Source: Chloroflexia bacterium (lineage in GTDB: Bacteria > Chloroflexota > Chloroflexia > DTKN01). Taken from it: a DNA stretch of 64,000 nt. Where the stretch lies: NCBI GenBank assembly GCA_016928715.1, contig JAFGKG010000112.1, positions 969 to 64,968 of the forward strand, given 5' to 3'. Each line of letters opens with the position of its first letter. Position 1 is the first letter of the stretch. The notes beneath the pieces were generated by a model that was not told the origin of the DNA, made no database searches, and saw nothing but the letters and a program-made list of their open reading frames with translations. The translations under genes were made by a program, and so were the position numbers. Below are positions 4,233 through 20,323 of the stretch, one piece after another.

Positions 4233-5072
4233 ATGCCCCGACGCAGAAAAGCGAAACAGGCCCCCTCCGACCCGGAGGCGACCGTACAGAAAAAGACCTG
4301 GCGGACCTGGTTGCGGCGCTCTCGAGGACGTCCGGTAGAACGCGCCGACCGGGTGGGAGCGGACCTGCCGGACCAGGGCGAGATGACCCTGCTGGAGCAC
4401 CTGCAGGAACTGCGCCGGCGCCTGATCGTCTCTTTGGTGGCCGTGGGCATCGGCACGGTGGTAGGGCTCGTCTTTACAGAGCGGTTGATGTACTGGCTGC
4501 TGCGCCTCTTGGAAAGCGTGCCCGGGGTCACGCCGCAGGCCATCGAGATTCCCGAGAAATTCACCACCAGCATGCGCCTGGCGCTGACGGTGGGGGTGGC
4601 GCTGGCCATGCCGGTCATTGTCTACCAGCTCTGGAAATTCCTGCAGCCCGGCCTCTATGCCCACGAGCAGCGCTACATCGTCATCGGCCTGCCCCTGGTC
4701 AGCCTGTTTTTCGCCTCCGGGGTAGCCTTTGCCTATTACGTCGCGCTGCCGGCGGCGATCAACTTTTTGCTGCGCTTTGGCAGCGAGCAGATCCTGACCC
4801 AGCCCCGGTTGGCCACATATCTCTCCTTTGTCTCCACCCTGCTTTTCTGGAGCGGCGTCAGCTTTGAGACGCCCATCTTTATCTTTTTCCTGGCCAAGCT
4901 GGGCGTGGTGGATTGGAAAAAGCTGCTCGGTTGGTGGAAATACGCCCTGCTGGCGGCCTTTGTGCTGGGGGCGGTGATCACCCCAACGCCGGACCCGCTG
5001 AATATGAGTCTCGTCGCCCTGCCGCTCTATTTGTTGTACTGGCTGGGGATCCTGCTGGCCCGCTTTGCCTGA
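4233..5072 (+). CDS. tatC: twin-arginine translocase subunit TatC
   Basis: The conserved TatC core starts at MTLLEHLQELRRRL (Met at 4383) and has 6 predicted TM segments. A basic 50-aa N-terminal extension applies if the ATG at 4233 is used, so the start is uncertain. Confidence 0.85.
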   Translation: MPRRRKAKQAPSDPEATVQKKTWRTWLRRSRGRPVERADRVGADLPDQGEMTLLEHLQELRRRLIVSLVAVGIGTVVGLVFTERLMYWLLRLLESVPGVTPQAIEIPEKFTTSMRLALTVGVALAMPVIVYQLWKFLQPGLYAHEQRYIVIGLPLVSLFFASGVAFAYYVALPAAINFLLRFGSEQILTQPRLATYLSFVSTLLFWSGVSFETPIFIFFLAKLGVVDWKKLLGWWKYALLAAFVLGAVITPTPDPLNMSLVALPLYLLYWLGILLARFA

Positions 5073-5079
5073 GACCTCC

Positions 5080-5108
5080 TTGACAAGCCTGGGACTGTTT
5101 GCTACAAT
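5080..5108 (+). promoter_or_regulatory. promoter of Clp-REC/YbjN operon (TTGACA-17-TACAAT)
   Basis: Hexamers at 5080..5085 and 5103..5108, with an exact 17-nt spacer. It lies just after the tatC stop. Confidence 0.7.
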
Positions 5109-5206
5109 CGGTCTGGGTTGCAAGAGAGCCGTGGCGCCCAAAGGATCTGTCGAGGCGTCCCCCATTTCAGAACTGGGGTGATTCCCCACCCGTGGAGGGA
5201 AACAAG

Positions 5207-7924
5207 GTGTTACGTGGTTACAATCCCAAAGCCCAAGAGGTCTGGCAAATTGCCAAGGCGCTGGCGTTCGACGCCCAGCGATCCCTTTCCCCGAGCGATC
5301 TGTGGTGGGCCTGCCTGACCACGATCCCGGAGGAGCACCGGAAGGAGTTGGGCCTGAGCCTCTCTCCGGAGAAACAAGAGCAGTTGGAGTCGCTGCGCCA
5401 GCGCCGCATCGAGGAGCGGGTCAGCGTCGTGCCGGCCGTGACCAAACTGGACCGCAACCTGAAAGAGATGTGCCGCGAGAGCGGTTCCCCCGCGGCGACC
5501 GTCTGGCACATGCTGCTGGGTCTGCTGGAGCAGCCGGACGAGGAGTTGAACCAGGTCTGGCAGACGATGGCGGTGGACCCGGAAAATTTGCGCCGACAGG
5601 TACGGGAGCAGATCGAGCAGTCCAAGCTGCCCTCCCGGCAGGTGCCCCTGCCCCAAGAAGCGCGGCGGGTGCTCAAGATGTTTACCCAGAACCTGACCGA
5701 AGCGGCGGCGCGGGGCGACCTGACCCCGGCCTACGAGCGGGAAAAAGAGCGGGCGGCGATCATTCGCACCCTGTTGCGCAAGAAAAAGCGCAACGTCGCC
5801 CTGGTGGGGCCGGCCGGCGTGGGCAAGACCAAGCTGGTCGAGGATCTGGCCCAACGCCTGCTGCAGGGGGAAGCCCCCCAACTGGCCGACTGCGAGGTCG
5901 TCTCCCTCAGCACGACGGCCCTGCGCGCCGGGGCCTCGATGCAGGGCGAGTTGGAGAGCCGCTTTGAGCAACTGCGCCAGGTGTTCGAGGATTACGGTGA
6001 CCGGCTCATCCTCTTTATCGACGAACTGCACGTGATTGTGGGCACGGCCCTGAGCAGCCAGTCGCTGGACCTGGCCAATGCCCTGAAACCGCTGCTGACC
6101 TCGGACCGCATCCGCTGCATTGGGGCCACGACCCAGCAGGAATTCATCCAATACGTCGAGCGGGACCGCGCCCTGGCCCGGCGTTTCCAGATGGTGGCGG
6201 TGCCCGAGCCCTCCAGGGCGGCGATGGAGCGCATCCTGGAGTCCGTGCGGCCCGAGTACGAAAACCACTATGGTCTGACCTATCCGCCCGAGACGCTCAA
6301 GACGATTCTGGACCTGGGCGACGTCTATCTGCCCAACCGCTACTACCCGGACAAGGCCCTGGACCTGTTGGACGAGGCCGGCGCTTGGCTGATCATGCAC
6401 GAGGGCGCAAGTGAGGAGCCGCGGCCCGTCCCGCCCGCGGCGGTCAAGGCGGTGCTCTCCGAGATCCTGCAGATTCCCTTGGAAGATCTGGACGAAACCG
6501 TCCTGCCGCAGTTAGCGCTGCAGTTGGGCGAGCGGATCGTCGGCCAGGACAAGGCCCTGAAGCAGATCCAGGACGCGCTCATTGCCGGCAGCGGGCGGAC
6601 CATGGTTTCCTCTCGGCCGCGGGCGGCCATGGCCTTTGTCGGCCTGCAGGGCTGTGGCAAGACCTTTGCTGCCCAGATGCTCACCGACGTGCTCTGCCAC
6701 AGCCGGCCGGCCTTTTTGGAGCTGGACCTGGACCAGATCGTGCGCGGCTACTGGCACGGCGGCGGGGCCGACTTTTTGCTGGGCCCCCGCCCGCCCTACG
6801 TGGGCTGGGAGCATGGCGGCGTGCTGACCAACCACGTCCTGGTGCACCCGCAGAGTGTGATCCTGGTCCGCGGCATCGAGCGGGCCCAGTCCGACGTGCA
6901 GCACCTCTTTGCCGGCATTCTGGATCGGGGGGAGGTGGAGGACGGCCGCGGGCAGCGCGTTACCTTCCGCGGGGTCGTGCTCATTTTCGCCTTTGAGAGC
7001 AAGCTGGCCGCGGATCGTTCGATTGGCTTTCTGCAGGCCGGTCGTGGTGGGCCGGTCGAGGTCGATTCCCTCAAGCTGCGGGACGAATTGGTGGAACAGG
7101 GCCTGCAACCGGCCCTGCTGCGGCGCATCGAGCACCTTGTTCCCTTCCAGCCGCTCTCTAACGAGGCGCTGCGGGAAATCGCCCGCCGCCGGCTGGAATC
7201 GTTCCGCCAGGAACTATACGAGCGCGAGGGCAAGGCCCTGGACGTCGAGGAGGATTTCCTGCCCCACCTGATCTCGCCCCAGGTCCACACGGCCTCCGAG
7301 GCCGAGCAGCAGGTGGAACAGCACGTCATCCTGGCCGTGAACGCGCTGCGCACCTCACCCGATTGGGCCAGTTGGAAGACCATCTGCCTGGATTGGGAAC
7401 AGGGCGTGGCCGTGGAGCCGCTGGTGCCCCGCGTCCTGGTGGTGGACGATCTGCCCGATTTCTTCCAAGAGTTGGAGCAGAGCTATGCCGAGTACCGCTG
7501 GTTGTACGCCTCGGACGGCGGGCAGGCCGCCCGGATCATCGAGGAGGAAGCCCCTCACCTGGTGATCATCGATACTTGTTTCAGCACCAGCAACGAGGCC
7601 GATGTCGGCGGGTTGGCGGTGCTGAAGGAACTCAAGAAGCGCTTTCCTGCCCAGCAGATCGTGCTGGTCACGGCCCAGGGCATGGACTTTCAGACGACGC
7701 GGGAGGCCTTTCGCGTGGGCGCCTACGACTATATCTGGAAGCCGCCGCAAGAGTCCGTGCTGCGCCAGTTGATCTCGGCCCTGGTGGCCCAGGAGGAGCA
7801 GCAGCGTCGCCTGGAGGTGCAGGACCAACTGCTGCGCGCCCAGTGGGAACGCCGGGTAGAGGCGGACGAACGCAACGTACGTATTACCTATCGCAAAGGA
7901 GGTGCGCCCGAGAAAAAGAGCTGA
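5207..7924 (+). CDS. Clp/Hsp100-like double AAA+ ATPase fused to a C-terminal response-regulator receiver domain
   Basis: GTG at 5207 lies 6 nt after GGAGGGA. The N-terminus is Clp_N-like. D1 has GPAGVGKT and LFIDELH. D2 has GLQGCGKT, but the Walker B position reads VILVRGIERA. An SIGF tripeptide sits at the ClpA IGL-loop position. The C-terminal REC has VVDD, IIDT, VTAQ and WKP. Confidence 0.85.
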   Translation: MLRGYNPKAQEVWQIAKALAFDAQRSLSPSDLWWACLTTIPEEHRKELGLSLSPEKQEQLESLRQRRIEERVSVVPAVTKLDRNLKEMCRESGSPAATVWHMLLGLLEQPDEELNQVWQTMAVDPENLRRQVREQIEQSKLPSRQVPLPQEARRVLKMFTQNLTEAAARGDLTPAYEREKERAAIIRTLLRKKKRNVALVGPAGVGKTKLVEDLAQRLLQGEAPQLADCEVVSLSTTALRAGASMQGELESRFEQLRQVFEDYGDRLILFIDELHVIVGTALSSQSLDLANALKPLLTSDRIRCIGATTQQEFIQYVERDRALARRFQMVAVPEPSRAAMERILESVRPEYENHYGLTYPPETLKTILDLGDVYLPNRYYPDKALDLLDEAGAWLIMHEGASEEPRPVPPAAVKAVLSEILQIPLEDLDETVLPQLALQLGERIVGQDKALKQIQDALIAGSGRTMVSSRPRAAMAFVGLQGCGKTFAAQMLTDVLCHSRPAFLELDLDQIVRGYWHGGGADFLLGPRPPYVGWEHGGVLTNHVLVHPQSVILVRGIERAQSDVQHLFAGILDRGEVEDGRGQRVTFRGVVLIFAFESKLAADRSIGFLQAGRGGPVEVDSLKLRDELVEQGLQPALLRRIEHLVPFQPLSNEALREIARRRLESFRQELYEREGKALDVEEDFLPHLISPQVHTASEAEQQVEQHVILAVNALRTSPDWASWKTICLDWEQGVAVEPLVPRVLVVDDLPDFFQELEQSYAEYRWLYASDGGQAARIIEEEAPHLVIIDTCFSTSNEADVGGLAVLKELKKRFPAQQIVLVTAQGMDFQTTREAFRVGAYDYIWKPPQESVLRQLISALVAQEEQQRRLEVQDQLLRAQWERRVEADERNVRITYRKGGAPEKKS

Positions 7925-7982
7925 ACCGCCGGTTTGCCCACGTTCGTCTGCCCCTGAGCAGGCGCTTTTAAAGGAGAATGCC

Positions 7983-8462
7983 ATGTCCGAAGTTACGATG
8001 GATGTCCTGAAACTATACCTGGAGCGGTTTGGTTGGTCCCAATACGATGCCAAGGACGAAGAGCAGGAACAAGAGGGCATTATCTACACCGGTTGGCGGT
8101 CCTCGGAAGAGGGGCCGGTCTATCGCATGACGATCGACCCCATGGCAGAAAAGAAATGTCTCTCCTTCAAGGTCCACCAGTTGGCCAAGGCCCCCAAGGA
8201 GGAAACGTCCGCCGACCGCCTGACCGGCCTGCTGATGGTCCTGGGGTGGGTCAACTATAGCATTATCCTGGGCAAGTTTGGCTACGACCACCGCGACGGC
8301 GAGGTGCGCTTTTCCGTCGATGTGCCCATCGACGTGAACGATTTCACCTACGAACAGTTCGCCCACGCTATGATTATCGCCATCCGCACGGTGGAGGAAT
8401 GGGCTTTGAAGCTGCAGGCCTACCTGGCCGGGGAAAAAGAACTCGGGGAACTGCTGGCCTGA
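7983..8462 (+). CDS. YbjN-like (putative sensory-transduction-regulator / T3SS-chaperone-like fold) protein, paralog 1
   Basis: ATG at 7983 lies 6 nt after AAGGAG. 159 aa. The family call rests on remembered YbjN-like pattern features, so it is moderately uncertain. It is a clear paralog of the next gene. Confidence 0.6.
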   Translation: MSEVTMDVLKLYLERFGWSQYDAKDEEQEQEGIIYTGWRSSEEGPVYRMTIDPMAEKKCLSFKVHQLAKAPKEETSADRLTGLLMVLGWVNYSIILGKFGYDHRDGEVRFSVDVPIDVNDFTYEQFAHAMIIAIRTVEEWALKLQAYLAGEKELGELLA

Positions 8463-8484
8463 CCCATTGACCAAGGAGTGACCG

Positions 8485-9072
8485 ATGCCATCCAATGTCA
8501 ACCTGGAAACCCTGAGCCAATACCTGGAGCGTTTCGGCTGGAAGCACTACCAAACCGCGGACGAGCCCGCCGAGCAAGAGGGTCTCATCCGTACCGGCTG
8601 GCGCGCCTCGGAAGGGCAGACCTACAGAATGGTGATCGACCCTATGGTCGAGAAAAACTGCCTTTCCTTTCGGGTGATCCAGGTTGCCATGGCGCCTTGG
8701 GATAGTACGCCCTCCGACCGGCTGAACGGCCTGTTGACCCTGCTCAACTGGGTCAATTACCGCATCATCCTGGGCAAATTTGGCTACGATGCCAGCGATG
8801 GGGAGGTCCGCTTCTCCATCGACGTACCCATCGACGAGAACGATTTCAGCTATGCCCAGTTCGAACACACCCTCCACGTCATTATCAACTCGATGCGCGA
8901 GTGGGATCCCCAGGTGCAGGCCGTGCTGTGCGGCGAAACACCCGTCCAGGATGTGCTGGTATCCAGTGCGCGCGAGAGCGGCGCCTCGGAAGATTTTATG
9001 CGGAAACTGACCGAGGCCCTGGAGAGGCGGGGCGACTGGTACGCCGAAGGGACGCCGCTGACCGAGATCTAG
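8485..9072 (+). CDS. YbjN-like protein, paralog 2 (with C-terminal acidic extension)
   Basis: 195 aa. It aligns along its length with 7983..8462 (YLERFGW, TGWR, YRM.IDPM.EK.CLSF, DRL.GLL, NWVNY.IILGKFGYD, DGEVRFS.DVPID.NDF). Confidence 0.6.
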   Translation: MPSNVNLETLSQYLERFGWKHYQTADEPAEQEGLIRTGWRASEGQTYRMVIDPMVEKNCLSFRVIQVAMAPWDSTPSDRLNGLLTLLNWVNYRIILGKFGYDASDGEVRFSIDVPIDENDFSYAQFEHTLHVIINSMREWDPQVQAVLCGETPVQDVLVSSARESGASEDFMRKLTEALERRGDWYAEGTPLTEI

Positions 9073-9131
9073 GGCTGGATGTAGGGGGACGGGTCATTCC
9101 TTACCCGCTGCTGTAAAAGCTGCAACCACAC

Positions 9132-9166
9132 CTTCCCGGAAGCTGCAGGCTTCCGGGAAGTTTTTT
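9132..9166 (+). terminator. intrinsic terminator of Clp-REC/YbjN operon
   Basis: Perfect 12-bp stem cttcccggaagc/gcttccgggaag, a 5-nt loop, then TTTTTT (9161..9166). Confidence 0.85.
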
Positions 9167-9180
9167 CGTAGAGGTCAAGC

Positions 9181-9309
9181 AATAACTTGCCGGTTTTGAC
9201 CGGCTAAAGCCTCGACTCCGCTCCGGGAAAGCGCGATCTTTTACGGGCCTTTTAGGAGTCGAGTCTTTAGCCGGTGACGGAGAACAGGCAGCAAAACCGG
9301 CAAGTTATT
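9181..9309. repeat. 129-nt two-tier inverted repeat (long hairpin element)
   Basis: The outer 18-bp stem is perfect (9181..9198 with 9292..9309). The inner 21-bp stem has 1 mismatch (9199..9219 with 9255..9275). The right arm covers the cyclase gene stop codon. Confidence 0.8.
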
Positions 9310-12300
9310 CTTTTACAGCGTCCAACGTTCTTTGCCAGTCGTGCACGATCTGTTGATTCCAGGGATTTCCCTGTACAAAGGAGCGCCGCAGACCTGGATC
9401 TTGGATCTCGGCGGCCATCTCCTGGAGCAGTTCGTGGGCGCGCTGGAGGTAGGGCCGGGCGGCCTGGAGTCCCTGCACCTGCCGCACGATGTGAAAGTGG
9501 TGGTGGTAGAGCTGGGGGATGTCGTCGACCCGCTGGCCATACGTTTGCAAAAAAGAAACCACCTCTTGGGATATCTCCAGGGCGTCCTGAGCCCGCCCCA
9601 GTTGGAGCAGGGCCAGGGCCTCGAAGGAACGGTAATGGAATGCGTCCACCTTTTGTCCGGCGCTGGAGGCCAGTTCGCTGGCCTGCCGGAAGTGCTCTAG
9701 TGCTGGCCCAGGCTGGCCTGACGCCAGCAGCACCCGGCCGAACAAGCCCTCCGCTTCGATGATAAAGTTCCGGTTCTGCACCTCGCGCAGCAGGGCCACG
9801 CTGCGTCGAGCGGCCTCCAGGGCCGGCCCCTCCTTGTGCCGGCGCAGGTGAGCGTGGCCCAGGACAAAGTGGACCATGCCCAGCATAAAAGTGTCGCCCG
9901 AACGCTCAAAAAAGGTGCGCGCCGGCTGAACGGTCTCGATAGTTTCCTCGGCCGCTCCCAGGGCCAGCAGGGCGATGCAAACGTTGATGCGTTGGACCGC
10001 CTCGTCCCGCGGCCGGCGCAGGGCTTTATAATGCTCGACGAGCTGTCGGTAGATCTGCAGTGCCCGCTCGTATTGGGTCTCGATCGAGAGATAGATGGTG
10101 CCCAATGTCCCCAGTGCGGTCGCTTCCCCCTGTGGATCCCGGCCGCGCTGAAAGCACTGGCGGGCGCGCTGCAAGGACTCGTGCATCCGCTCGATATCAT
10201 ACTGCAGCCAGTAAGCGCGGCAGATCGTGTTCCAACAGCGGCCGGCCAGGGAATCGTCCCCGCAGCGCTCGGCCAGGACCACAGCCTCCTCAAGCCGGGA
10301 GAGGCTGTCGCAGTATTGGCCCCAATCTAATAGCATGTGGCCCTGGTGGTACAGTACGTAGGCCTGGCGCTGCTCATCACCCTGGGCCAGCCAGGCCATC
10401 TCTTGCAGCACCCGCTCCTGCTCCTCGTGCCGGCCCAGTTGCTGCAGCACCCGTTCCAGGCGCTGTAAATAGTCCCAGTGCGCCTCGGCGTTGTCCTGGG
10501 GCAGCCAGGCCCGCGCCTGGCGATAGTACTCCAGGGCCTCCCGGTTGGAAAAAGCCCGCGCGGCCCGGTTCCCCGCCCGCATCAAATAGACCCAGGCCTT
10601 TTCCCCGTTGCCGCCCAGGTGGTAGTGATGGGCCAGTAAATCGGTGACTTGATCCAGCTCGTCGACGTGAACGTCCTCCAGGTAGCGGGCCAGGGCTTGG
10701 TGTAGGGCCCGGCGCTGGGAAAAAAGCAGGCTCTCGTAGGCTACCTCGCGGGTGATAATGTGCTTGAAGAAAAAGATCCGCTCCTGGGGCTGCTCCAGCA
10801 GCAGCAGGTCCACCCGCTCCAAGGCAGCTAGCTGGGACGACAACTCTGCCTCGTCGACCTCCAGCGGGTAGATTCCCTGCAATTGGCTATAGGGCACGGT
10901 GCGCCCAATGACCGAGGCGACCTTGAGGGTCAACTGGCTGCCCTCGTCCAATTGGTCCAGGCGGGCCTGCACCACGCCCTGTACGGTCTGGGGAACCTGG
11001 AGGTGCTCCAGGTCCCCCTGCACAATACAGCTCCCGTTCTGGGGAAGCAGGCGAATGCCGGCGTCCTGCAGGGTGTTTAGTATCTCTTCGATGAAAAAGG
11101 GATTGCCCTGGGCTCGTTCCAGCAGCTTGAGCAACTCTGGAGGCAGCCGGACGTGGGCCGGCAGGTCCAATCGCAGGCGGGCCAGGGCCTGACTGCCCGC
11201 CGGTGAAAGGGCGTGCAGGCGCAGGCTCTGGCTGTGAGGGAGCCCGGCCAGTTGGCGGTAGGGAGCGGGTTGGGGCTTGTCCAGGGGGCGGTGTATGGGA
11301 AGTACGAGGACGGGATGAGAGGCGATGTTGCGGGCGATGTAGAGGAGCAGCTCCAGGGAAGGTCCGTCCATCCAGTGGATGTCCTCGAAAAGCAGCAGGG
11401 TGGGCGCGACGCCGGCCTGGTGGCGCACGATGTCCAGGATCAGTCCAGAGAGATTGCGCTTTCGTTCGGGCCCCTGCAGGTGCTCGGTAAAGGGGTTATC
11501 CGGGATGGGCAGCCCCAGAATGTCCGCCAGCAGGGGCAGGCGCACCGACAGGTCCCCCGGCATAAAGGACAGGGCGGCTTTTAGGTGCTGCACGCGTTCC
11601 TGCGCCGGTCGGTCTGGGGCCAGCTCGAACATTGTGGCGAGCAGTTGCTGGAAGGGATGGTAGGGGCTGCCCATAGTGTAGGAGAGACTGTCCGCACTAT
11701 AGAGCTGCCCCCCGCGTCCGGCCCACCATCGCGCCACCTTGCCGGCCAGGCGGCTTTTGCCCACGCCGGCCTCGCCCTCCAGCAAGATCACCTGCCCTTT
11801 TCCCGCCAGGGCCTGCTGGGCCAGCTTTTGGATCTGCGCCCATTCCTGTTCCCTGCCCACCATTTCGTCCTGGTACAACTGCTCCCAGACGAGCGGGGCG
11901 CGGTTGTCCCTCTCCATAGCCTGGAGTTCGAACGTGGGCACGGCCTCTAGCTTGCCCTTGATCACGGTCCGGCCCAGCGGCCGAAACTGGCCCCGGCCGG
12001 ACACCGCGTGCTGCAGGCGGGCGCTGACCACGATCTGGCCCCAGGTTGCCCCCTCCATCAGCCGGGAGGCCAGGTTCATCTCGTCCCCGATGGCGGTGTA
12101 GGTCCAGCGCTCCACGCTTCCCAGGGGCCCGACGAAAACAAGGCCGCTGCTGATGCCGATGCGCTGGGAGGCCACCCCTAAATCGGCTGGCCGGATGCGT
12201 TCCTGCAGGTCCAGGGCGCAGTGCAGGGCCCGTTCCCCATCGTCCTCATGGGCGTTGGGGGCGCCGAAAAGGATGAGCAGCAGGCTGCCCTTGTCCCCGA

Positions 12301-13219
12301 CCTCGACGTCGTTGAGCCGGCCGTCGTAACGCTGCACGATCGCTTGCACGGCGGCTACATAGGATTGCAGTTGCCTCCCCGCCTGCAGGTCCGGTCCCTG
12401 GAAACCGACAAAGAGGATCACCACCCGGCGGTGCTCGCCGACAAAGGCCCGACCGGCCGTCTGGATGCGCCGCAGCAGCACCGGCGGCAAAAAGGCGGCC
12501 AGTTCCGGCCGGCGCTCCGGGGGGACCAGGGTCTCGGCTGCGGCCGCAGACGCGGGTGGGGGAGCGGGGTCCCCCGCCGGTGCCCGGGCACAGCCGCCCG
12601 GCAGCGGTTGGAGCGGGACCTCCGCCGGCAGCAGCGCCTGCACCTGCCGGTCGAGTACAATCTCCCCCGGCCGGGCCCGCAGCAGCGCCTCCACTGCCGC
12701 GGCCCGGCTGGGGCCGGCCAACAGGTGCAGCAGGCCGGTCTCGACGCTGCCGAGCACGGCGGTCACTGTTTCTCCCGCGCCCAGGCCGATGCGGACCTGC
12801 AGGGGAAAGGTTCCCTGGGTGGTGTGCAGCACGGCCGTCTGGCCGACGTACTGCTGGATGGACTGGGCGCAGGCCAGCGCCCGCCGGCCAGCTGGTTCCA
12901 GTTGCTTCCCTTCGCTATCCAGGGGCATAAAGAGCGCCGTCATGGCGTCCCCGCTGAACTGGGCAGTGTCCCCGCCGTAGAGACGGCAGAGTTCGATGAT
13001 CTGGGAAAAGTGCTGGTTGAGCAGGCTGGAGAGTTCCTCGGCGCCCTGCCGGCCGGCCTGGGCCAGCGCCTCGGCCAGCGGGGTAAAGCCCGATATGTCC
13101 ACGATCAGCACGACCGCGGCAAAGCGCTGCTGCCAGCCGGGCAGCGGCCCCTTGGCGGCCTGCCGCAGCAGGTATTCGGGCAGATAGGCCAGACAGGCTC
13201 GTTCGACTCGGTCTTTCAT
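9305..13219 (-). CDS. tandem class III adenylate/guanylate cyclase - AAA (STAND-like) ATPase - TPR signalling protein
   Basis: 1304 aa. Cyclase domain 1 has VLIVDISGFTPLAE and FSGDAMTALF. Domain 2 has VILFVGFQGPD, VGDKGSLLLILFGAP and IGDEMNLASRL. The P-loop is LLEGEAGVGKSRL. The C-terminal half is rich in TPR-like repeats. Confidence 0.9.
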   Translation of the reverse strand: MKDRVERACLAYLPEYLLRQAAKGPLPGWQQRFAAVVLIVDISGFTPLAEALAQAGRQGAEELSSLLNQHFSQIIELCRLYGGDTAQFSGDAMTALFMPLDSEGKQLEPAGRRALACAQSIQQYVGQTAVLHTTQGTFPLQVRIGLGAGETVTAVLGSVETGLLHLLAGPSRAAAVEALLRARPGEIVLDRQVQALLPAEVPLQPLPGGCARAPAGDPAPPPASAAAAETLVPPERRPELAAFLPPVLLRRIQTAGRAFVGEHRRVVILFVGFQGPDLQAGRQLQSYVAAVQAIVQRYDGRLNDVEVGDKGSLLLILFGAPNAHEDDGERALHCALDLQERIRPADLGVASQRIGISSGLVFVGPLGSVERWTYTAIGDEMNLASRLMEGATWGQIVVSARLQHAVSGRGQFRPLGRTVIKGKLEAVPTFELQAMERDNRAPLVWEQLYQDEMVGREQEWAQIQKLAQQALAGKGQVILLEGEAGVGKSRLAGKVARWWAGRGGQLYSADSLSYTMGSPYHPFQQLLATMFELAPDRPAQERVQHLKAALSFMPGDLSVRLPLLADILGLPIPDNPFTEHLQGPERKRNLSGLILDIVRHQAGVAPTLLLFEDIHWMDGPSLELLLYIARNIASHPVLVLPIHRPLDKPQPAPYRQLAGLPHSQSLRLHALSPAGSQALARLRLDLPAHVRLPPELLKLLERAQGNPFFIEEILNTLQDAGIRLLPQNGSCIVQGDLEHLQVPQTVQGVVQARLDQLDEGSQLTLKVASVIGRTVPYSQLQGIYPLEVDEAELSSQLAALERVDLLLLEQPQERIFFFKHIITREVAYESLLFSQRRALHQALARYLEDVHVDELDQVTDLLAHHYHLGGNGEKAWVYLMRAGNRAARAFSNREALEYYRQARAWLPQDNAEAHWDYLQRLERVLQQLGRHEEQERVLQEMAWLAQGDEQRQAYVLYHQGHMLLDWGQYCDSLSRLEEAVVLAERCGDDSLAGRCWNTICRAYWLQYDIERMHESLQRARQCFQRGRDPQGEATALGTLGTIYLSIETQYERALQIYRQLVEHYKALRRPRDEAVQRINVCIALLALGAAEETIETVQPARTFFERSGDTFMLGMVHFVLGHAHLRRHKEGPALEAARRSVALLREVQNRNFIIEAEGLFGRVLLASGQPGPALEHFRQASELASSAGQKVDAFHYRSFEALALLQLGRAQDALEISQEVVSFLQTYGQRVDDIPQLYHHHFHIVRQVQGLQAARPYLQRAHELLQEMAAEIQDPGLRRSFVQGNPWNQQIVHDWQRTLDAVKE

Positions 13220-13268: not shown

Positions 13269-15764
13269 TTACCCCCGCTCGTAGCCCGGCCGGATATCGA
13301 CCCGCCGCAGCAGGTTGGCGTTGCTGACGACGGTGATCGAGCTGGTGGCCATGGCGATCTCGGCCAGGACCGGGTGCATCAGGCCCAGCACGGCCAGGGG
13401 GATCATGATGACGTTGTAGAAAAAGGCCCAGAACAGGTTCTGCACGATCTTGCGAAAGGTGGCCCGGGAGAGGTTCACCGCCTTGACCACCTCGGAAAGG
13501 TTGCCCCGCACCAGGGTGATGTCGGCGGCCTCGATAGCGATGTCCGTGCCGCTGCCGATGGCGATGCCCACGTCGGCCTGGGTCAGGGCCGGGGCGTCGT
13601 TGATGCCGTCGCCGACCATGCCTACGCGGCTGGCCTCCTGCTGCAGGCGGCGGATCTCCTCCACCTTGCCCTCGGGCAGCACCTCGGCCAGGACCCGCGA
13701 GATGCCGACCTGCCGGGCGATGGCCTCGGCCGTGCGGCGGTTGTCCCCGGTCAGCATGACCGTGCGCAGGCCCATGCGCTCCAGTTCGCCCACGGCGGCG
13801 ACCGCGTCCGCTTTGAGCGTGTCGGCAACGGCGATGGCGCCGAGCAGTTGGCCGGCTCGGGCGGCCAGCATGACGGTCTTGGCCTCGCCCTCCAGCCGTT
13901 CCACCTCGGCCTGGAGGGGGCCGAGGTCCAGGCCGGCCTCCTGCATAAAGCGGGGGCTGCCCACCAGCACCGGCCGGCCCTCCACCTGTGCCCGCACGCC
14001 CCGGCCGCGCTCGATCTGAAAGTCGACCGGCTCGCTCAGCTCCAGCTCCTCGGCGCGGGCGCGCTCCACTACGGCCCGGCCCAGGGGATGCTCGCTGCCC
14101 AGCTCGGCCGAGGCGGCCCAGCGCAGCAGTTCCCGTTCGGCCACCCCCAGGGGCGCCAGGTCGGTGACCTCGGGCCGGCCCTTGGTCAGGGTGCCGGTCT
14201 TGTCAAAGACGATCACCCGCAGGTCCTTCAGGGTCTGGATGGCCTCGCCGCTGCGGATGAGGATGCCGTTCTGCGCTCCGATGCCGCTGCCCACCATGAG
14301 CGCCGTGGGCGTGGCCAGCCCCAGGGCGCAGGGGCAGGCGATGACCAGCACGGCTACGGTGGCGAATATGGCCAGGGTGACCGCCCCCAGTTCCGGGTTG
14401 ACCCAGGGCAGGACCCCCGCGGCCCGCTCGGCGACGACCCCCATGGCCGAGGGAAAGATCAGCCAGGCCAGCAGGGTCAGCACGGCAATGACCACAATGA
14501 CCGGCACAAAGATGGCGGTGACGCGGTCGGCAAAGGCCTGGATGGGCACCTTGCTGCCCTGGGCCTCGTCGACCAGTTGGATGACCTGGGCCAAAAAGGT
14601 CTCCCGGCCGACACGCGCCGCCCGCACCTTGAGCAGCCCGTCCTGGTTGACGGTGGCGCCAATGACCTCCTCGCCGGGGCCTCGGTTGACGGGCATGGAC
14701 TCGCCGGTGACCATGGACTCGTCCAGGGCGCTCTCCCCCTCGACAATGATGCCGTCGGTGGGCACCTTTTCGCCGGGGCGGACGACCATGACGTCGCCCA
14801 CCTGCACCGACTCGATGGGCACCTCTTTTTCCCGGCCGTCCACCAGGATGTGGGCGGTTCTGGCCCCCAGCTCCAACAGCCGACGGATGGCCTGGGAGGC
14901 GCGGCCCTTGGCCGTGGCCTCGACGTAGCGGCCGGTCAGGTGAAAGGCCATGATCATGCCCGAGACCCCGGCATAGTTGGCGATGGCGGCCTCGCCGCCG
15001 GTCAGTGTGCCCCACAGGGCCACCGGCCCGGTCAGCAGGGAGGACAGGGTGCCCATGGCGATGAGCACGTCCATGTTGGCGTTGCCGTGGCGGAGCGAAC
15101 TCCAGGCCGAGCGGTAGGTCTGCCGGCCGGCCCAAAAGAGCACCGGCAGGGCCAGCAGCAGCATGCCGGCGTTAAAGACGGCGGCGTTGGGCCACATCAG
15201 GCCCCAGAACATCTCGGGCAGCATCCAGAGCACGATGGGCGCGGTAAAGGCCCAGGCCAGCAGCATGCGCCGGCGGGCGCGGTCCATCTTGCGCTCCTCC
15301 TCGCCGGCCTCCTCCTCGGCCACGGCCTCCATATCGACCACGTCGTAGCCGGCCTCCCGCACCGCCGCCACCAGGCCGGCCCGGTCCACCAGGCCGGGCA
15401 CGTAGGTGACGGTGGCCCGCTCGGTGGCCAAATTGACCGCTGTATCCAGGACGCCGGGCGTCTCGGTGAGCGCCTTTTCCACGTGGGCCACGCAGCTCGC
15501 GCAGGTCATGCCGGATACCGGCAGCACTACCGTCTCCTGGGAGACGTCGTAGCCGCTGTCCTGCACGGTGCGGACGAATTGGGACAGGCTGACCCGGGTG
15601 GGATCATAGTCCAGGGTGGCCCGCTCGGTGGCCAGGTTCACGGCCACCTTGTCCACGCCCTCGACCGCGCCCAGGGCCTTTTCCACGTGGGCCACGCAGC
15701 TCGCGCAGGTCATGCCCTCCACGGGCAGGGTGAGTTCTTGCTTTTTCAGTTCTTGCTTGGCCAT
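13269..15764 (-). CDS. copA: copper-translocating P1B-type ATPase with two N-terminal HMA domains
   Basis: Two GMTCASCVAHVEKAL motifs, CPCALGLATP, DKTGTLT and GDGINDAPAL. Confidence 0.95.
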   Translation of the reverse strand: MAKQELKKQELTLPVEGMTCASCVAHVEKALGAVEGVDKVAVNLATERATLDYDPTRVSLSQFVRTVQDSGYDVSQETVVLPVSGMTCASCVAHVEKALTETPGVLDTAVNLATERATVTYVPGLVDRAGLVAAVREAGYDVVDMEAVAEEEAGEEERKMDRARRRMLLAWAFTAPIVLWMLPEMFWGLMWPNAAVFNAGMLLLALPVLFWAGRQTYRSAWSSLRHGNANMDVLIAMGTLSSLLTGPVALWGTLTGGEAAIANYAGVSGMIMAFHLTGRYVEATAKGRASQAIRRLLELGARTAHILVDGREKEVPIESVQVGDVMVVRPGEKVPTDGIIVEGESALDESMVTGESMPVNRGPGEEVIGATVNQDGLLKVRAARVGRETFLAQVIQLVDEAQGSKVPIQAFADRVTAIFVPVIVVIAVLTLLAWLIFPSAMGVVAERAAGVLPWVNPELGAVTLAIFATVAVLVIACPCALGLATPTALMVGSGIGAQNGILIRSGEAIQTLKDLRVIVFDKTGTLTKGRPEVTDLAPLGVAERELLRWAASAELGSEHPLGRAVVERARAEELELSEPVDFQIERGRGVRAQVEGRPVLVGSPRFMQEAGLDLGPLQAEVERLEGEAKTVMLAARAGQLLGAIAVADTLKADAVAAVGELERMGLRTVMLTGDNRRTAEAIARQVGISRVLAEVLPEGKVEEIRRLQQEASRVGMVGDGINDAPALTQADVGIAIGSGTDIAIEAADITLVRGNLSEVVKAVNLSRATFRKIVQNLFWAFFYNVIMIPLAVLGLMHPVLAEIAMATSSITVVSNANLLRRVDIRPGYERG

Positions 15765-15796
15765 TGTACACCTCCACTGGAGAGGATTGTTTTCTG

Positions 15797-15828
15797 TATC
15801 CCCCCGGGGGGGATATGGTCCTATTATA
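15797..15828 (-). promoter_or_regulatory. copA promoter -10 (TATAAT, 15828..15823) followed by a CsoR-type G/C palindrome TATCCCCCCGGGGGGGATA (15797..15815)
   Basis: The near-perfect inverted repeat sits between the -10 hexamer and the copA RBS. It resembles known CsoR operators (TAC/TCCCC...GGGG(T/A)A). Confidence 0.55.
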
Positions 15829-15941
15829 GCAGAGGGGGTGCGGGCAAGCAGTGAGCGGGCTTACGTTCTCCCTCCCGCCAGTTGTCCCGGGACGGCTTTT
15901 GTGTTAGGATACGGTATGAGAGATTCCACTTGGAGGCCGCC

Positions 15942-17087
15942 ATGCACGTCGCCATTGATTACAGCGCCGCCGTCTGGCAGGGGGCCGGCATCGGCCGCTA
16001 CAGCCGGGCCCTGGTGGGCGCCCTGCTGCGGCTGGACCGGGAGAATCGCTACACCCTGCTCTACCCCCGGGGCTGGCCCGGCCGGCCGGCGCCCTTTTTG
16101 GGGCACCTGGCCGCCCTGCGGCGGCGCCATCCAAACCTGCGCCTGCGCCCGCTGCCCCTGAGCGACCGCTGGACGGCCATCCTCTGGCAGCGCCTGCGCC
16201 TGCCCCTGCCGGTAGAGCTGTTCTGCGGGCGCGTCGACTGCTTTTACTCGCCCGATTTCGTCCTGCCGCCCCAGATCGGCGGCCGGCGCGTGCTCACCGT
16301 GCACGACCTGGCCTTTATGGTCCACCCCGAGTGCGCCGTGCCCTCGCTGGAGTGGTACCTGCACGGCGCCGTCTCCCGCGCGCTGGAGCGGGCCGACCTG
16401 GTCCTGGCCGATTCAGAGTGCACCCGCCAGGATTTGATCCGGCTCAAGGGGGCCGACCCGCAGCGGGTGCGGGTGCTCTACCTGGGGGTGGAGGAGGACT
16501 TTCGGCCCCTGGAGGACCACGCCGCACTGGAACGGGTACGGGCACGCTACGAACTGCCGGAGCGATTCTTGTTTACCGTGGGCACCATCCAGCCGCGCAA
16601 GAACCTGCCGCGCCTGCTGCAGGCGCTGGCCTCCCTGCCCGAGGCGCTGCGGCTGCCGCTGGTCGTGGCCGGCAAGCCGGGTTGGCTCTACGAGGAGACC
16701 TTTGCAGCGGTAGAACGGTTGAGCCTGCAGTCTTGGGTGCGCTTTCTCGGCTTTACCCCCGACGAGGACCTCCCCGCCCTGCTGAACCTGGCCCTGGCCC
16801 TGGTCTACCCCTCCTTGTACGAGGGCTTTGGCCTGCCCCCCCTGGAGGCCATGGCCTGCGGCACCCCCGTGTTGACCAGCGACGCGGCCTCCCTGCCCGA
16901 GGTCGTGGGAGAGGCGGCGGTGTTGGTGGACCCACTGGACGTGGCGGGGATCGCGGCCGGCCTGCGCCGCCTAATCGAGGACGGCGCCCTGCGACAGTCG
17001 CTCCGGGCGGCCGGCCTGGAGCGGGCGCGGGGCTTTAGTTGGGAGCGCTCGGCGCGGCAGTTGCTGGAGTTTTTGGGCCAGGGTTGA
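15942..17087 (+). CDS. glycosyltransferase family 4
   Basis: ATG at 15942 after GGAGG. The GT4 C-terminal signature is PSLYEGFGLPPLEAMACGTPVLTS. Confidence 0.85.
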   Translation: MHVAIDYSAAVWQGAGIGRYSRALVGALLRLDRENRYTLLYPRGWPGRPAPFLGHLAALRRRHPNLRLRPLPLSDRWTAILWQRLRLPLPVELFCGRVDCFYSPDFVLPPQIGGRRVLTVHDLAFMVHPECAVPSLEWYLHGAVSRALERADLVLADSECTRQDLIRLKGADPQRVRVLYLGVEEDFRPLEDHAALERVRARYELPERFLFTVGTIQPRKNLPRLLQALASLPEALRLPLVVAGKPGWLYEETFAAVERLSLQSWVRFLGFTPDEDLPALLNLALALVYPSLYEGFGLPPLEAMACGTPVLTSDAASLPEVVGEAAVLVDPLDVAGIAAGLRRLIEDGALRQSLRAAGLERARGFSWERSARQLLEFLGQG

Positions 17088-19569
17088 GGGGCGTGTTTTC
17101 CTCCAGCGCTTCCTGCACCGCCGCCCCGGCGTCGATCAAGCCGCAGCCATAGAGGTTGTTGGGCGTGCCGGTGGCGTCGCCGCAGGCGCAGATGGGCCCC
17201 TCGCCCAGCAGGGAGGCCTCCGGGCTGTTGGCCTCCTCAATGTCCTCGACGGTGCAGGCGTTATCCACCGGACGGGCTTGCGCCGTGCGGCAGAGCAGGG
17301 CCTCGGTGGCGTCAATGTCGCCGACTAGGTCGGGGTTGGCCGACCAGACCAGGGCCACCACGCCGACCACGTGGGGGCCGGCCATGGAGGTGCCGTCGGC
17401 GTAGCCATAGCCGCCGCCGGGCACGCTGGAACGCACGCCCGAGCCCGGCGCGGCGATGTCGGGCTTGAGCAGATCGCCCACCGGGCCGCGGCTGCTAAAG
17501 CCGGTCAGGTTGCCGCGGTCGTCGGTCGCCGCCACGGAAAAGACGGCGTCGTAGCGGGCCGGCGGCTCCACGGCGGTGCTGCAGGCCGGCCCGTCGTTGC
17601 CGGCGCTGACGACCATCATGATCCCCGCTGCGCGCAGGGCCATCACTGCCGGCTGCAGGGTGTCGTCCTGACAGCCCTCAAAGTCGGGGCAGCCCCAGGA
17701 GTTGTTGATGACCTGCGGGCTGTAGCTTACGTCGCCGTCGCGGAAGGGGTCTCCCCCGTGGGGATAGGGCGCCAAAAAGTACTCCATGCACTCGGCGTAG
17801 GAACCGGGGTTGCCAAAGCCGCGCCGCATGTTGCGGCAGCCGATCCAGCGGGCCCCCGGGGCCACGCCGGGGCGGTTGTTCCCGCCGTCGTCGCCCAGCA
17901 CGGTGCCCATGGTGTGGGTGCCGTGGTTGTCGTCGTCAAAGGGGACGGCGGCGTCGTCCCAGGCGTCGTGCCAGTTATAGTCGTGCACGGCCTCCTGGCC
18001 GTCCCAGCCGCGATAGTGGGCCTGCAGGGCCGGGTGGGTCCAATCGTAGCCGGTGTCCTGCCCGGCCACGACGACACCCTGCCCCAGTACGCCCAATTCC
18101 CAGGCCTGATCGGCGTGGATGGCCTGCAGGTTGGACTGGACCTCGGAGGAAGGGCTGTAATCCGAGCCGTAGGAGAGGGGCTGGCGGTTGGGGTACTCGC
18201 GCACGTTGGGGTTGAGGATCACCTGGGCCACGCCGGGCCGGTCCGCAAAGCGGCCCATCATCCAGCGGTGCCCGTCCACGCGGATCATGTTGATGAGGTA
18301 ATAGGGCCGGTAGGGCAGGCCCAGCTCGTCCAGCTCCTGGCGCAGCTCGGCCTGGCTGCGCTCGGCCGTCTGGACCAGGGCCTCGTAGACGTACTGCCGG
18401 CGGGCCTGCTCGTCGGCAATGTCGGCGGCCGCGCTGAGATCGGCCCGCTCCTCCAGGATGATGAGAAAGCCGTCGTCGTAGAATCCGGGGGCGCCGACCG
18501 AGAGGTACATAGCCGCCCAGGCCGAGCACAGGACCAGCATAAAGAGGCCGGCAAAGGCCAGGCGCATGGCGGTCGTGCTCCGGGCCTCCAGCACCTGCAG
18601 CAGCTTGCGCCCGCCCCAGAGGGCCAGGCCCAGCAGAAAAGCCCCCACGGCGGCAAAGACCAGGCTGCCGATGTGGCCGAGTTCGGGAATGCCCATGGCC
18701 TCCATGTCCCGGGGGTCCATGAACAGCGCGGGGAGGGCGCGGTAGGCCCAGGCCAGCGGGAACAGGGGGTACAGTCCTCCCTCGTGGGCCCGCAGTTCGC
18801 TGAGCAGTACCGCCAGGGGCAGCAGCAGGGCCGGCCAGAGCAGCGCCCCCCAGTCGGCGTTGGGCAGGGCCGCCCCCAGGCTGAAGGCCAGGTAGAGCAC
18901 CACCGTCATCAGGCCGGCCAGCCAACGGCGGGAGAGCTGGGCCCGCAGCAGATAGAAGAGCAGACCCCAGAACAGCAGCACCTGCGGCGTCATCTGGGCC
19001 AGGGAACGAAAGACGATCTCCAGGCTGGTCAGGCGGTCTCCCAGGGCGCCGGTGCGCGGCCAGAACAGGGTCAGCAGCGCGGCCAGGCCCAGGGCCAGCA
19101 GCAGGGTGGAGGGAGCCAGGCGGTGCAGGTCCAGAACCTGGGCGACGGAGCGTTCCTCTTGGCCCAGCAGGGTGGGAAGCCAGCGGGCCAACAGCAGCAC
19201 GTAGCCGACCAGGAGCAGCAGTTGCAGCAGGGCGGCGGTGTTGGCTTGGCCGGGCAGGGCGGCGCGCACCGTTCCCTCGATCATGAGATAGCCGCCGACC
19301 GCGCCCAGGCCGGCCGCGATGGCCAGGGTCGCTCCCCAGCCGGCGCGTCCGCGGAGCAGCCAGGCCAGGCCGGCCGCGGGCAGTGCGGCCAGCAGGGCTG
19401 CTGCGGCCGGCAGCAGGGTGGCCAGGTCGCCGGGCAGATTGGGGTCCTGTTGGACATTGCCCACCAGGACCGTCCCTCCGATCAGGGTCAACACGAACCA
19501 GAGCAGCAGAGCGGCGACCACTGCAGCCTGGGCGCAGCCCCGCTCCACGCTCGTTGTCGTTTCTTCCAT
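17035..19569 (-). CDS. S8 (subtilisin-like) serine peptidase with a large N-terminal polytopic membrane domain
   Basis: Catalytic triad motifs AGQDTGYDWTHPAL, DNHGTHTMGTV and GTSMAGPHVVG. The first ~370 aa have many hydrophobic helices. ATG at 19569 after GAGGTG. The 3' end overlaps the convergent GT4 gene by 53 nt. Confidence 0.85.
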   Translation of the reverse strand: MEETTTSVERGCAQAAVVAALLLWFVLTLIGGTVLVGNVQQDPNLPGDLATLLPAAAALLAALPAAGLAWLLRGRAGWGATLAIAAGLGAVGGYLMIEGTVRAALPGQANTAALLQLLLLVGYVLLLARWLPTLLGQEERSVAQVLDLHRLAPSTLLLALGLAALLTLFWPRTGALGDRLTSLEIVFRSLAQMTPQVLLFWGLLFYLLRAQLSRRWLAGLMTVVLYLAFSLGAALPNADWGALLWPALLLPLAVLLSELRAHEGGLYPLFPLAWAYRALPALFMDPRDMEAMGIPELGHIGSLVFAAVGAFLLGLALWGGRKLLQVLEARSTTAMRLAFAGLFMLVLCSAWAAMYLSVGAPGFYDDGFLIILEERADLSAAADIADEQARRQYVYEALVQTAERSQAELRQELDELGLPYRPYYLINMIRVDGHRWMMGRFADRPGVAQVILNPNVREYPNRQPLSYGSDYSPSSEVQSNLQAIHADQAWELGVLGQGVVVAGQDTGYDWTHPALQAHYRGWDGQEAVHDYNWHDAWDDAAVPFDDDNHGTHTMGTVLGDDGGNNRPGVAPGARWIGCRNMRRGFGNPGSYAECMEYFLAPYPHGGDPFRDGDVSYSPQVINNSWGCPDFEGCQDDTLQPAVMALRAAGIMMVVSAGNDGPACSTAVEPPARYDAVFSVAATDDRGNLTGFSSRGPVGDLLKPDIAAPGSGVRSSVPGGGYGYADGTSMAGPHVVGVVALVWSANPDLVGDIDATEALLCRTAQARPVDNACTVEDIEEANSPEASLLGEGPICACGDATGTPNNLYGCGLIDAGAAVQEALEENTPLNPGPKTPATAAPSAPN

Positions 19570-19625
19570 CGTACACCTCATGCTTTTGCTGGTGGTCTGA
19601 AAATAGCCCCGTCTGGGTCATCCCT

Positions 19626-19704
19626 GTAGGGGCAAGCCCGCCCCAACAAGTTGGGGATGTGGTTGCCCTCTATCCGACCGGGCAGCCACAAGGGCTGCCC
19701 CTAC
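19626..19704. repeat. two REP-like hairpins between the S8 protease and DUF1232 genes
   Basis: The first hairpin spans 19628..19668 (aggggcaa..ccccaac aa gttgggg..ttgccct). The second pairs 19680..19687 with 19693..19700 (GGGCAGCC acaag GGCTGCCC, then C-TAC). Confidence 0.7.
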
Positions 19705-19707
19705 TCT

Positions 19708-20217
19708 TCAGGCACCCCCGCCCCCCCCGGCGCCGCGCTGACCGAAACGGCCGCGCAGCAGGGAGAACACCCGGGAACCCAGGATATTTTCGGCGCCGGC
19801 GGCCGCCTTTTGCAGTTGTTCCAGCACATCCTCCGAGCCTGACCAGTGCTCGCGCAGGATATCCTCGCCGCCCTGGCCCATCAGGTCGAGCAGGCGCAGC
19901 AGGGTAAAGGCGATGGCGGCCAGGTCGTCGATCAGGCCAGCCCCGGGAATAAAGTCGGGCACCAGGTCCAGCGGCGAGATGACGTAGAGGACTGCGGCCC
20001 CGATCTGCAGCTTTAGCGAGCGGTCGATGCGCGGATCCCGCAGCAGCCGGATCATGAGGGTGAAAAAGTCGGGGACGAGCAGGACATAGTCCCGTACCGA
20101 CTGCGGCAGTCGTTTCTCCATCAGCCAGTAATCCACCCGCTGGCGCAGGCGGGTATAAAAACTTTCGGCTTGCTCGATCTGCTGGGCTAATTCTTGCTGC
20201 TGCTCAGTTTCACTCAT
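19708..20217 (-). CDS. DUF1232 (YkvA-like) membrane protein
   Basis: Motif YVISPLDLVPDFIPGAGLIDDLAAIAF. ATG at 20217 is preceded by GGAGGAGG. Confidence 0.75.
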   Translation of the reverse strand: MSETEQQQELAQQIEQAESFYTRLRQRVDYWLMEKRLPQSVRDYVLLVPDFFTLMIRLLRDPRIDRSLKLQIGAAVLYVISPLDLVPDFIPGAGLIDDLAAIAFTLLRLLDLMGQGGEDILREHWSGSEDVLEQLQKAAAGAENILGSRVFSLLRGRFGQRGAGGGGGA

Positions 20218-20252
20218 CGTCCTCCTCCCTGGATATCGGATCATTCAAGCAA

Positions 20253-20281
20253 ATTATAGCCGGAAATGGACGATTTGGCAA
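20253..20281 (-). promoter_or_regulatory. promoter of DUF1232 gene (TTGCCA-17-TATAAT)
   Basis: Minus-strand hexamers at 20281..20276 and 20258..20253. Confidence 0.6.
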
Positions 20282-20294
20282 TTGGCCAAATTTC

Positions 20295-20323
20295 TTGCAT
20301 GACAGGGCCGCATGTAGTACAAT
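20295..20323 (+). promoter_or_regulatory. promoter of PASTA kinase gene (TTGCAT-17-TACAAT; extended GTAGTACAAT)
   Basis: Hexamers at 20295..20300 and 20318..20323. This predicts a leader of about 185 nt. Confidence 0.6.

Follow-up and report, generated by a model that had tools for sequence, protein, structure and literature searches.

A small YbjN subfamily encoded beside a receiver-bearing Clp ATPase: a probable dedicated partner and possible tethered adaptor

We analysed a 64,000-nucleotide (nt) stretch of contig JAFGKG010000112.1 from a Chloroflexia bacterium (assembly GCA_016928715.1), hereafter the window, in which two adjacent plus-strand genes encode proteins of the YbjN family, namely, YbjN_S of 159 amino acids (aa) (positions 7983..8462, ATG start) and YbjN_L of 195 aa (8485..9072, ATG start). 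They follow the gene of a Clp-type ATPase with a fused receiver (REC) domain, which we call Clp-REC (5207..7924, same strand, 905 aa from GTG 5207). The recurrent adjacency of YbjN and Clp-REC genes makes it highly probable that YbjN is a dedicated physical partner of Clp-REC. More tentatively, and with somewhat less than even confidence, we propose that YbjN proteins of the YbjN_S/YbjN_L type may be tethered adaptors or cofactors for a phospho-gated, ClpP-coupled unfoldase.

The linkage was found from both sides. With YbjN as the starting point, a full Clp-REC gene directly adjoins it in the loci L002, L003, L006, L011 and L021-L026 and on the P0004 contig. With the ATPase as the starting point, metagenome contigs were scanned using an alignment of only its second AAA+ domain (D2) and REC part, which yielded 24 loci, two of them too short to judge; YbjN lies beside the ATPase in 21 of the 22 informative loci, one of the 21 being L049, where a REC-less 811-aa paralogue stands next to a divergent 170-aa YbjN-like gene. 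The co-occurrence with Clp-REC homologs in other genomes that the original prediction, made from the window's letters alone, had proposed looking for is therefore seen in both directions. Across these loci the ATPase is 40% to 72% identical to the window protein, and the linked pair spans at least eight lineages; since many of the metagenome loci are near-duplicates, the independent sample amounts to about eight lineages rather than 40 loci. Both orders of the YbjN and ATPase genes occur, and in L026 the ATPase stop and the YbjN start overlap by 4 bp. The flanking genes are unrelated, comprising TatC in the window and EamA, HSP20, a YifB/ComM-like protein, CHAT-TPR, DUF4340 with an ABC transporter, and ETF elsewhere, and the neighbour tables of the loci, in which the flanks differ, hold no third conserved gene. 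More distant Clp-like genes without REC also pair with YbjN, in L017, L018 and L020, all three with both D2 motifs degenerate, and in L049. Ten lineages have YbjN with no Clp in the available flanks (L001, L004, L005, L007, L008, L009, L010, L012, L013 and L016), and the eight of these ten loci that were examined have no alternative common neighbour. Adjacency conserved in this way is what one would expect if the two proteins act jointly.

YbjN_S and YbjN_L are members of the YbjN family by both profile and fold. Their scores against Pfam PF10722 (YbjN), whose gathering score is 22 bits, are 26.3 bits and 37.7 bits, respectively. The AlphaFold model of YbjN_L, built on 24 homologues, has a predicted local distance difference test (pLDDT) score of 89.6 and a predicted template modelling (pTM) score of 0.83, and its best Foldseek match in the PDB is DR_1245 (4h5b; E 9e-6). 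Further matches are ExsC, CesT, SchA, VecA, SycE, the SycN-YscB heterodimer, SicP and Spa15, all with a Foldseek probability of 0.9-1.0, and P. aeruginosa BacA. The relationship to YbjN and type III secretion chaperones, which the original prediction had offered as a recognition, is thus what Pfam and AlphaFold/Foldseek both return. In the model, the chaperone-fold core of YbjN_L (aa 1-148) is followed by two added helices (aa 154-187) and then by a tail of low confidence that is probably disordered; YbjN_S consists of the core only, with neither linker nor tail. The fold was modelled for YbjN_L alone, to which YbjN_S is 59% identical (92/157 identities by BLASTP, E = 8e-70), and YbjN_S retains all 18 residues that are invariant across 24 diverse subfamily members (alignment A1). 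The paralogy that had been read by eye is thereby confirmed, and the shared sequence blocks quoted for it are present in both proteins, except that YbjN_S has G in place of the initial N of 'NWVNY'. Other searches were negative: a sequence search of solved structures with the YbjN profile gave nothing meaningful (best E 0.19), no NCBIfam model matched either protein, neither matched Pfam CesT, TY-Chap1 reached 14.1 bits against a cut-off of 27, and PADLOC gave no defence-system match for either protein and only generic AAA+ matches for the ATPase. Of the known family members, which include E. coli YbjN, Erwinia AmyR is dimeric in its published structure, as is Deinococcus DR_1245, whose binding partner is DdrB (PMC5398634, PMC3575483).

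The subfamily is small and sharply conserved within a large superfamily. A word-indexed search gave 74 clusters, defined at 90% identity, and an exhaustive profile search of 1.84 billion representatives found 35 clusters at E <= 1e-30, 96 at <= 1e-10 and 1,079 at <= 1e-3. The named clusters are mostly from Armatimonadota (Fimbriimonadales, bacterium HR15), to which the genome scan adds a metagenome-assembled genome (MAG) of Ca. Fervidibacter; a few loci come from MAGs of Chloroflexota, Verrucomicrobiota and Microthrixaceae. The closest named relatives of both window proteins are in Armatimonadota MAGs. Among the YbjN-like proteins searched there was no Rosetta-stone fusion of YbjN with a Clp ATPase. 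Other fusions of YbjN-like domains were seen in a library at 50% identity, namely, with WD40 propellers, a TraG-D_C domain and a Ser/Thr kinase (proteins P0194, P0203, P0193 and P0241).

YbjN is single-copy in all 20 loci of the reference-genome scan. The YbjN_S and YbjN_L pair, always in the order ATPase, YbjN_S, YbjN_L, occurs only in the window, on the P0004/P0016 contig, in L022/L023 and on the P0003/P0028 contig, all of them of the window's own clade, in which L021 has a single gene of the YbjN_L type. A neighbour-joining tree likewise places every copy of either form inside this clade, and the duplication is accordingly specific to the window's lineage. Core identities lie at 56-72%, the two copies on the same contig in one relative being 72% identical, and neither the tree nor the identity matrix gives a clean split between them. 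Since the two orthologue groups cannot be cleanly separated, the duplication has either been blurred by gene conversion or has taken place more than once. The original prediction had described a three-gene system with no described function; no described function was found for it, but the conserved unit consists of two genes, Clp-REC and one YbjN.

Clp-REC consists of a Clp_N-like helical N-domain, the AAA+ domains D1 and D2, REC, and a C-terminal helix with a beta-hairpin. Pfam AAA, AAA_lid_9, AAA_2 and Response_reg (49.3 against 30.2 bits) are above their cut-offs; Clp_N, with one repeat only, reaches 20.4 bits against 20.7, and the AlphaFold model (pLDDT 79.7) has eight helices within aa 1-140, consistent with two four-helix Clp_N repeats. 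The long helix and beta-hairpin after the receiver (aa 851-897) are conserved according to the model and the orthologue alignments. The best solved relative is ClpA, which aligns as one contiguous stretch (E 1.6e-87), whereas ClpB and ClpC align in two stretches, and Clp-REC accordingly has no M-domain. None of the NCBIfam equivalog cut-offs is reached (ClpA 364 against 993, ClpB 346 against 1232, ClpV 373 against 885). About 37 clusters have the full architecture, the database names, for those that have one, being 'ClpA/response regulator', 'ClpA', 'AAA family ATPase' and 'hypothetical protein'; all are from MAGs or metagenome contigs, and the named members are Armatimonadota.

The motifs of the two rings differ sharply. 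In D1, both Walker A GPAGVGKT (aa 201-208) and Walker B LFIDELH (aa 269-275) are intact (5807..6031), and none of K207, T208, D272 and E273 varies among 23 orthologues. Between the two motifs lies the D1 pore loop, which is SMQG in the window and VHG or AHG in orthologues, where ClpA has KYRG, so the aromatic residue is not conserved. In D2, where motifs were assigned by the ClpA alignment (6641..6880), Walker A GLQGCGKT (GxxxxGKT) and the pore loop PPYVGWE (PPY[V/I]GWE) are kept across orthologues, with Y531 invariant. However, the D2 Walker B, VILVRGIE in the window and LLLDEIE in ClpA, has RG or RH in every Clp-REC orthologue, R555 being invariant and G556 at least 90% conserved in 23 sequences. 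The loop SIGFLQ (7019..7036) aligns with ClpA KSIGLIH at the position of the IGL loop; in its family form, [I/L]GF, G607 and F608 are invariant, and residues 602-616 are disordered in the model (pLDDT < 50). We infer that this loop docks ClpP. The receiver domain (7424..7756) has D747 and D748, which are invariant, the predicted phospho-acceptor D789 (7571-7573) and T822, both at least 90% conserved, and K845, read in the window sequence only.

The C-terminus of the long YbjN forms provides a further trait that goes with the ATPase. In these forms a variable and highly charged stretch leads into a terminal L-x-E-[V/I]-COOH, of which the window's GTPLTEI-COOH (9049..9069, plus strand) is an instance; other endings are PLTEI, PLTEV, PLEEV, DDLTEV, DDLREV, DDLKEV and DDLHEV. 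The tail is present in complete YbjN genes beside full Clp-REC, one variant ending in DEI. It was found in about 15 lineages with adjacent Clp-REC and in 2 of 13 without it (L001 and L004), a distribution (15/0 against 2/11) with p = 4e-6 by Fisher's test on approximate, hand-grouped lineages and with no correction for shared ancestry. Among Fimbriimonadales, L005 and L007/L008 have neither tail nor ATPase, and the related L026 has both. Binding of the tail to the receiver domain, in the way that CheZ and FliM peptides bind CheY, was considered and given less weight: in L048 a tail-bearing YbjN lies beside a 661-aa Clp without REC, and in L049 the YbjN of the REC-less paralogue ends in MEV. 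Since these two loci pair YbjN with a REC-less Clp, a tethering tail would probably dock elsewhere than on the receiver domain.

In its predicted working, the module has its closest counterpart among known systems in a Clp protease served by a tethered adaptor, but both fold and motif are new for such an adaptor. SspB, the adaptor of ClpXP, consists of a binding domain, a flexible linker and a C-terminal peptide that docks on ClpX. YbjN_L has a comparable layout, in which a flexible linker joins a folded binding domain, probably dimeric, to a short C-terminal peptide that is conserved, and it is this correspondence that favours a tethering role. On the other hand, SspB, MecA (ClpCP) and ClpS (ClpAP) have no sequence or fold kinship with the two window proteins, and the motif is a different one. 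The ATPase resembles ClpA in its end-to-end alignment, in the lack of an M-domain and in the hydrophobic-Gly-Phe loop where ClpA has IGL, but differs in its dead D2 Walker B, its D1 pore loop without tyrosine and its fused receiver. Coupling of a receiver domain to Clp-dependent proteolysis occurs in CpdR and in RssB (PMC10844676); in Clp-REC, however, the receiver is fused to the unfoldase itself. YbjN, AmyR and DR_1245 resemble the subfamily in profile, in predicted fold and in being small cytosolic proteins, whereas the C-terminal helices, linker, tail and fixed AAA+ neighbour are its own, none having been reported for those proteins. Within the library searched, the literature held nothing on YbjN with an AAA+ partner, on a Clp-receiver fusion or on the function of this pairing.

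Class I type III secretion chaperones (SicP/InvC, CesT, SycN-YscB) share the fold, and in them too a chaperone, holding a stretched-out part of its client, is paired with a hexameric ATPase. In the system studied by Akeda and Galan in 2005, the secretion ATPase reportedly strips the client from its chaperone and unfolds it. SycN-YscB further illustrates that two paralogous chains can form one heterodimeric chaperone. However, no secretion-system families or effector were found in the window or in the neighbour tables of any locus, and the partner is a Clp/Hsp100 double-ring protein rather than an F1-like SctN. With neither a secretion system nor an effector nor a match to the CesT profile, YbjN_S and YbjN_L have the fold of these chaperones but stand outside their functional class.

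From these likenesses and from the sequence features, the following working scheme can be drawn for the adaptor role. Known members of the fold are described in the literature as dimers that bind extended peptides; similarly, a YbjN dimer, in the window perhaps a YbjN_S/YbjN_L heterodimer with a single tail, would hold an extended stretch of either a client protein or the ATPase. The charged flexible linker and L-x-E-[V/I]-COOH of YbjN_L would tether the dimer to the ATPase in the manner of SspB on ClpX. D1, the sole ring predicted by its motifs to hydrolyse ATP, would supply the power, and D2, which has lost Walker B and kept its nucleotide-binding and pore-loop motifs, would probably be a structural ring contacting ClpP. 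The [I/L]GF loop, judging by its position and conservation, would pass the unfolded chain to ClpP, and an unlinked kinase would switch the machine on or off by phosphorylating the fused receiver.

Several observations weigh against this scheme. L043 has a Clp-REC gene but no YbjN gene in the 1.3 kb upstream and the 2.3 kb downstream of it, the tail stands without adjacent Clp-REC in L001 and L004 and beside a REC-less Clp in L048, and the correlation between tail and adjacency is confounded by shared ancestry. A D1 pore loop without the usual aromatic residue is odd for a ring that pulls substrates. No ClpP or ClpS was found by tblastn with E. coli queries in the window or in 50 loci, and no histidine kinase gene lies in the window or beside the module in most loci.

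A first alternative, unlikely in our view, is that YbjN regulates Clp-REC rather than delivering clients to it. As an inhibitor, anti-adaptor or partner-switching factor, it would bind the ATPase, for example at REC or at the C-terminal helix-hairpin, and Clp-REC would be held inactive or active until a signal arrives, much as ExsC and CesT act with ExsD/ExsE and CsrA. The closest structural matches of YbjN_L include proteins of this fold that switch partners (ExsC-ExsE, CesT-CsrA), the ATPase is the only conserved neighbour and hence the only obvious binding partner, and its conserved helix and beta-hairpin are of the kind that such chaperones wrap; moreover, the historical Pfam label of the YbjN family is 'putative sensory transduction regulator'. 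On the other hand, a linker and tail of the tethering type are more typical of delivery adaptors, and the association also holds with the REC-less Clp paralogues of L017, L018, L020 and L049. The present evidence does not separate the regulator from the adaptor.

Somewhat less probable still, YbjN might be an assembly or stability chaperone of the ATPase, or its preferred substrate with L-x-E-[V/I]-COOH as the degron; MecA is likewise both adaptor and substrate of ClpCP. The conserved motif at a free C-terminus, on a probably flexible, low-confidence tail, is degron-like, the tight gene coupling suggests matched amounts of the two proteins, and YbjN has been put forward as a possible protein stabiliser, going by the title of Chen et al. 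2006 as cited in PMC9503650. However, a substrate gene would not be expected to stay with its protease through swaps of gene order in at least eight lineages, and YbjN_S, which has no motif, is nevertheless kept with every invariant residue.

We regard it as very unlikely that Clp-REC takes the place of Mpa/ARC in a UBact-proteasome or other ubiquitin-like system, with YbjN as the receptor of the tag or of tagged clients; a YbjN dimer would then capture the disordered tag or the tagged clients and hand them to the Clp ring. The suggestion comes chiefly from L026 (GCA_026003115.1, a Fimbriimonadales MAG; 6246-12924), where Clp-REC, YbjN, a Pup-ligase homologue, UBact and two proteasome subunits share a strand, the gaps between them ranging from -4 to about 120 nt. 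Related genes occur elsewhere, with Prok-E2 and ThiF 6 kb upstream in L056/L057, Prok-JAB downstream of YbjN in L048 and L016, and a divergent Clp and YbjN/CesT-like pair within a ThiF operon in L035. In Pup operons the position that Clp-REC has in L026 is held by the Mpa ATPase. Nevertheless, proteasome genes lie within 10 kb in just one of the at least eight Clp-REC lineages, that of L026, and there are none in the window. Clp-REC also has neither a GQYL/HbYX C-terminus (its own is variable, ...APEKKS in the window) nor the coiled-coil/OB N-domain of Mpa, and it has a ClpP-type loop instead. A general proteasome link for the module, seen in L026 only, was accordingly rejected. Finally, that the neighbours are co-transcribed passengers with no shared function, as the lone YbjN relatives among unrelated genes (L001, L004, L005, L007, L008, L010, L012 and L013) might suggest, is very improbable given that YbjN adjoins the ATPase in nearly all ATPase-selected loci, in both orders and among unrelated flanks, that the tail motif tracks the ATPase, and that the identity range given above excludes a sampling artefact of a single clone.

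Two of the arrangements just mentioned have features of their own. In L048 (10462-13598) and L016 (823-3403), which belong to distant lineages, YbjN is followed by a 485-aa protein of no known family and then by Prok-JAB; in L048 the 661-aa Clp without REC lies upstream. The L035 region (13537-20401, minus strand), an apparent mobile element, holds, in this order, a ThiF/E1-like gene, the D1 and D2 of a Clp as two separate genes with Walker B intact, a PARP-like gene, a 241-aa YbjN/CesT-like gene and a HerA/DUF87 ATPase gene.

The signals around the three window genes are consistent with their co-transcription, as promoter, terminator and spacing agree. A sigma-70-type promoter (5080..5108, plus strand; TTGACA, 17 nt, TACAAT, with a TG extension) matches the consensus with a score of 11/12 and is the sole promoter-like site across 4800-9400. 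The Clp-REC stop codon TGA at 7922-7924 is followed by gaps of 58 nt to YbjN_S and 22 nt from YbjN_S to YbjN_L, and AGGAG-type ribosome-binding sites precede both YbjN starts. An intrinsic terminator (9132..9166, plus strand) has a 13-bp GC-rich stem (9132-9160), a 3-nt loop and T6; its segment (9110-9175, 66 nt) folds with a minimum free energy (MFE) of -26.2 kcal/mol and a z of -2.9. It is the only strong plus-strand site of its kind after the genes, and between the three genes there is no other strong one, the ATPase gene containing one weak 6-bp stem. Both gaps are exactly as first described, and the promoter and terminator lie where the original prediction had placed them. The listed open reading frame (ORF) of the ATPase begins at TTG 5099 and overlaps this promoter; both a GGAGGG Shine-Dalgarno sequence and the alignments of orthologues indicate that translation really begins at GTG 5207.

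Just past the terminator lies a 143-nt nested inverted repeat (9174-9316) that forms a single long hairpin and overlaps the stop codon of a convergent gene (9305-13219, minus strand). The hairpin segment (9168-9322, 155 nt) has an MFE of -74.1 kcal/mol and a z of -7.0 against shuffles; its outer-arm core of 17 nt is unique in the window, and it matches no Rfam family. The convergent gene encodes a 1304-aa protein, which by eye resembles large signalling proteins with several domains (cyclase / AAA-type NTPase / TPR), and it is not kept beside the module in other loci.

The collected loci show a number of other rearrangements. In L024/L025 (9711-13593), YbjN and Clp-REC have the end of a large TPR-CHAT gene on one side and a 69-aa ORF on the other. 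The sequence of this ORF duplicates the final 60 residues of the CHAT protein (69-83% identity), an arrangement that looks like the insertion of the two genes as a cassette. In L051 (2975-5515), and also in L052 and L031, Clp-REC and YbjN are separated by an inserted gene, whose 846-aa product matches nothing in Pfam and has hydrophobic, by eye apparently membrane-spanning stretches; in the near-identical relatives L035, L046 and L050 the two genes directly adjoin without this insert. L055 (8001-10692) has Clp-REC split after residue 661 into a Clp ORF and a separate 234-aa receiver ORF one base past its stop, with a Uma2-family gene between YbjN and Clp. The gene of a hybrid histidine kinase stands some 700 nt upstream of YbjN in this locus; the 661-aa truncation recurs in the protein clusters P0112 and P0115. 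A YifB/ComM-like AAA+ gene of the Mg-chelatase family stands divergent to the module in several HR15-type lineages (L054, 6447-7985; L056/L057, 6401-7999; L002, L044 and L045) and stays there whether YbjN or Clp-REC comes first. In L021, a close relative of the window, the gene of a small heat-shock protein (HSP20; 6373-6819) precedes Clp-REC by about 400 nt on the same strand.

YbjN proteins occur widely, and what they do has been unclear since pleiotropic phenotypes were described in E. coli and Erwinia; the present subfamily offers a testable partner of the Clp type and a short, deletable motif. Since the family is small and confined to little-studied bacteria, the impact would be mechanistic rather than broad. 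If the adaptor role holds, type III secretion would not be the only setting in which a chaperone is paired with an ATPase that unfolds proteins: such a pair would also operate in the cytosol with Clp/Hsp100, and a new fold would be added to the Clp adaptors. Clp-REC is unusual in itself, with its fused receiver, a second ring that is uniformly hydrolysis-dead by motif, and a ClpP-type loop; in such a machine, two-component signalling would act directly on the protease motor and not, as with RssB and CpdR, via a separate adaptor.

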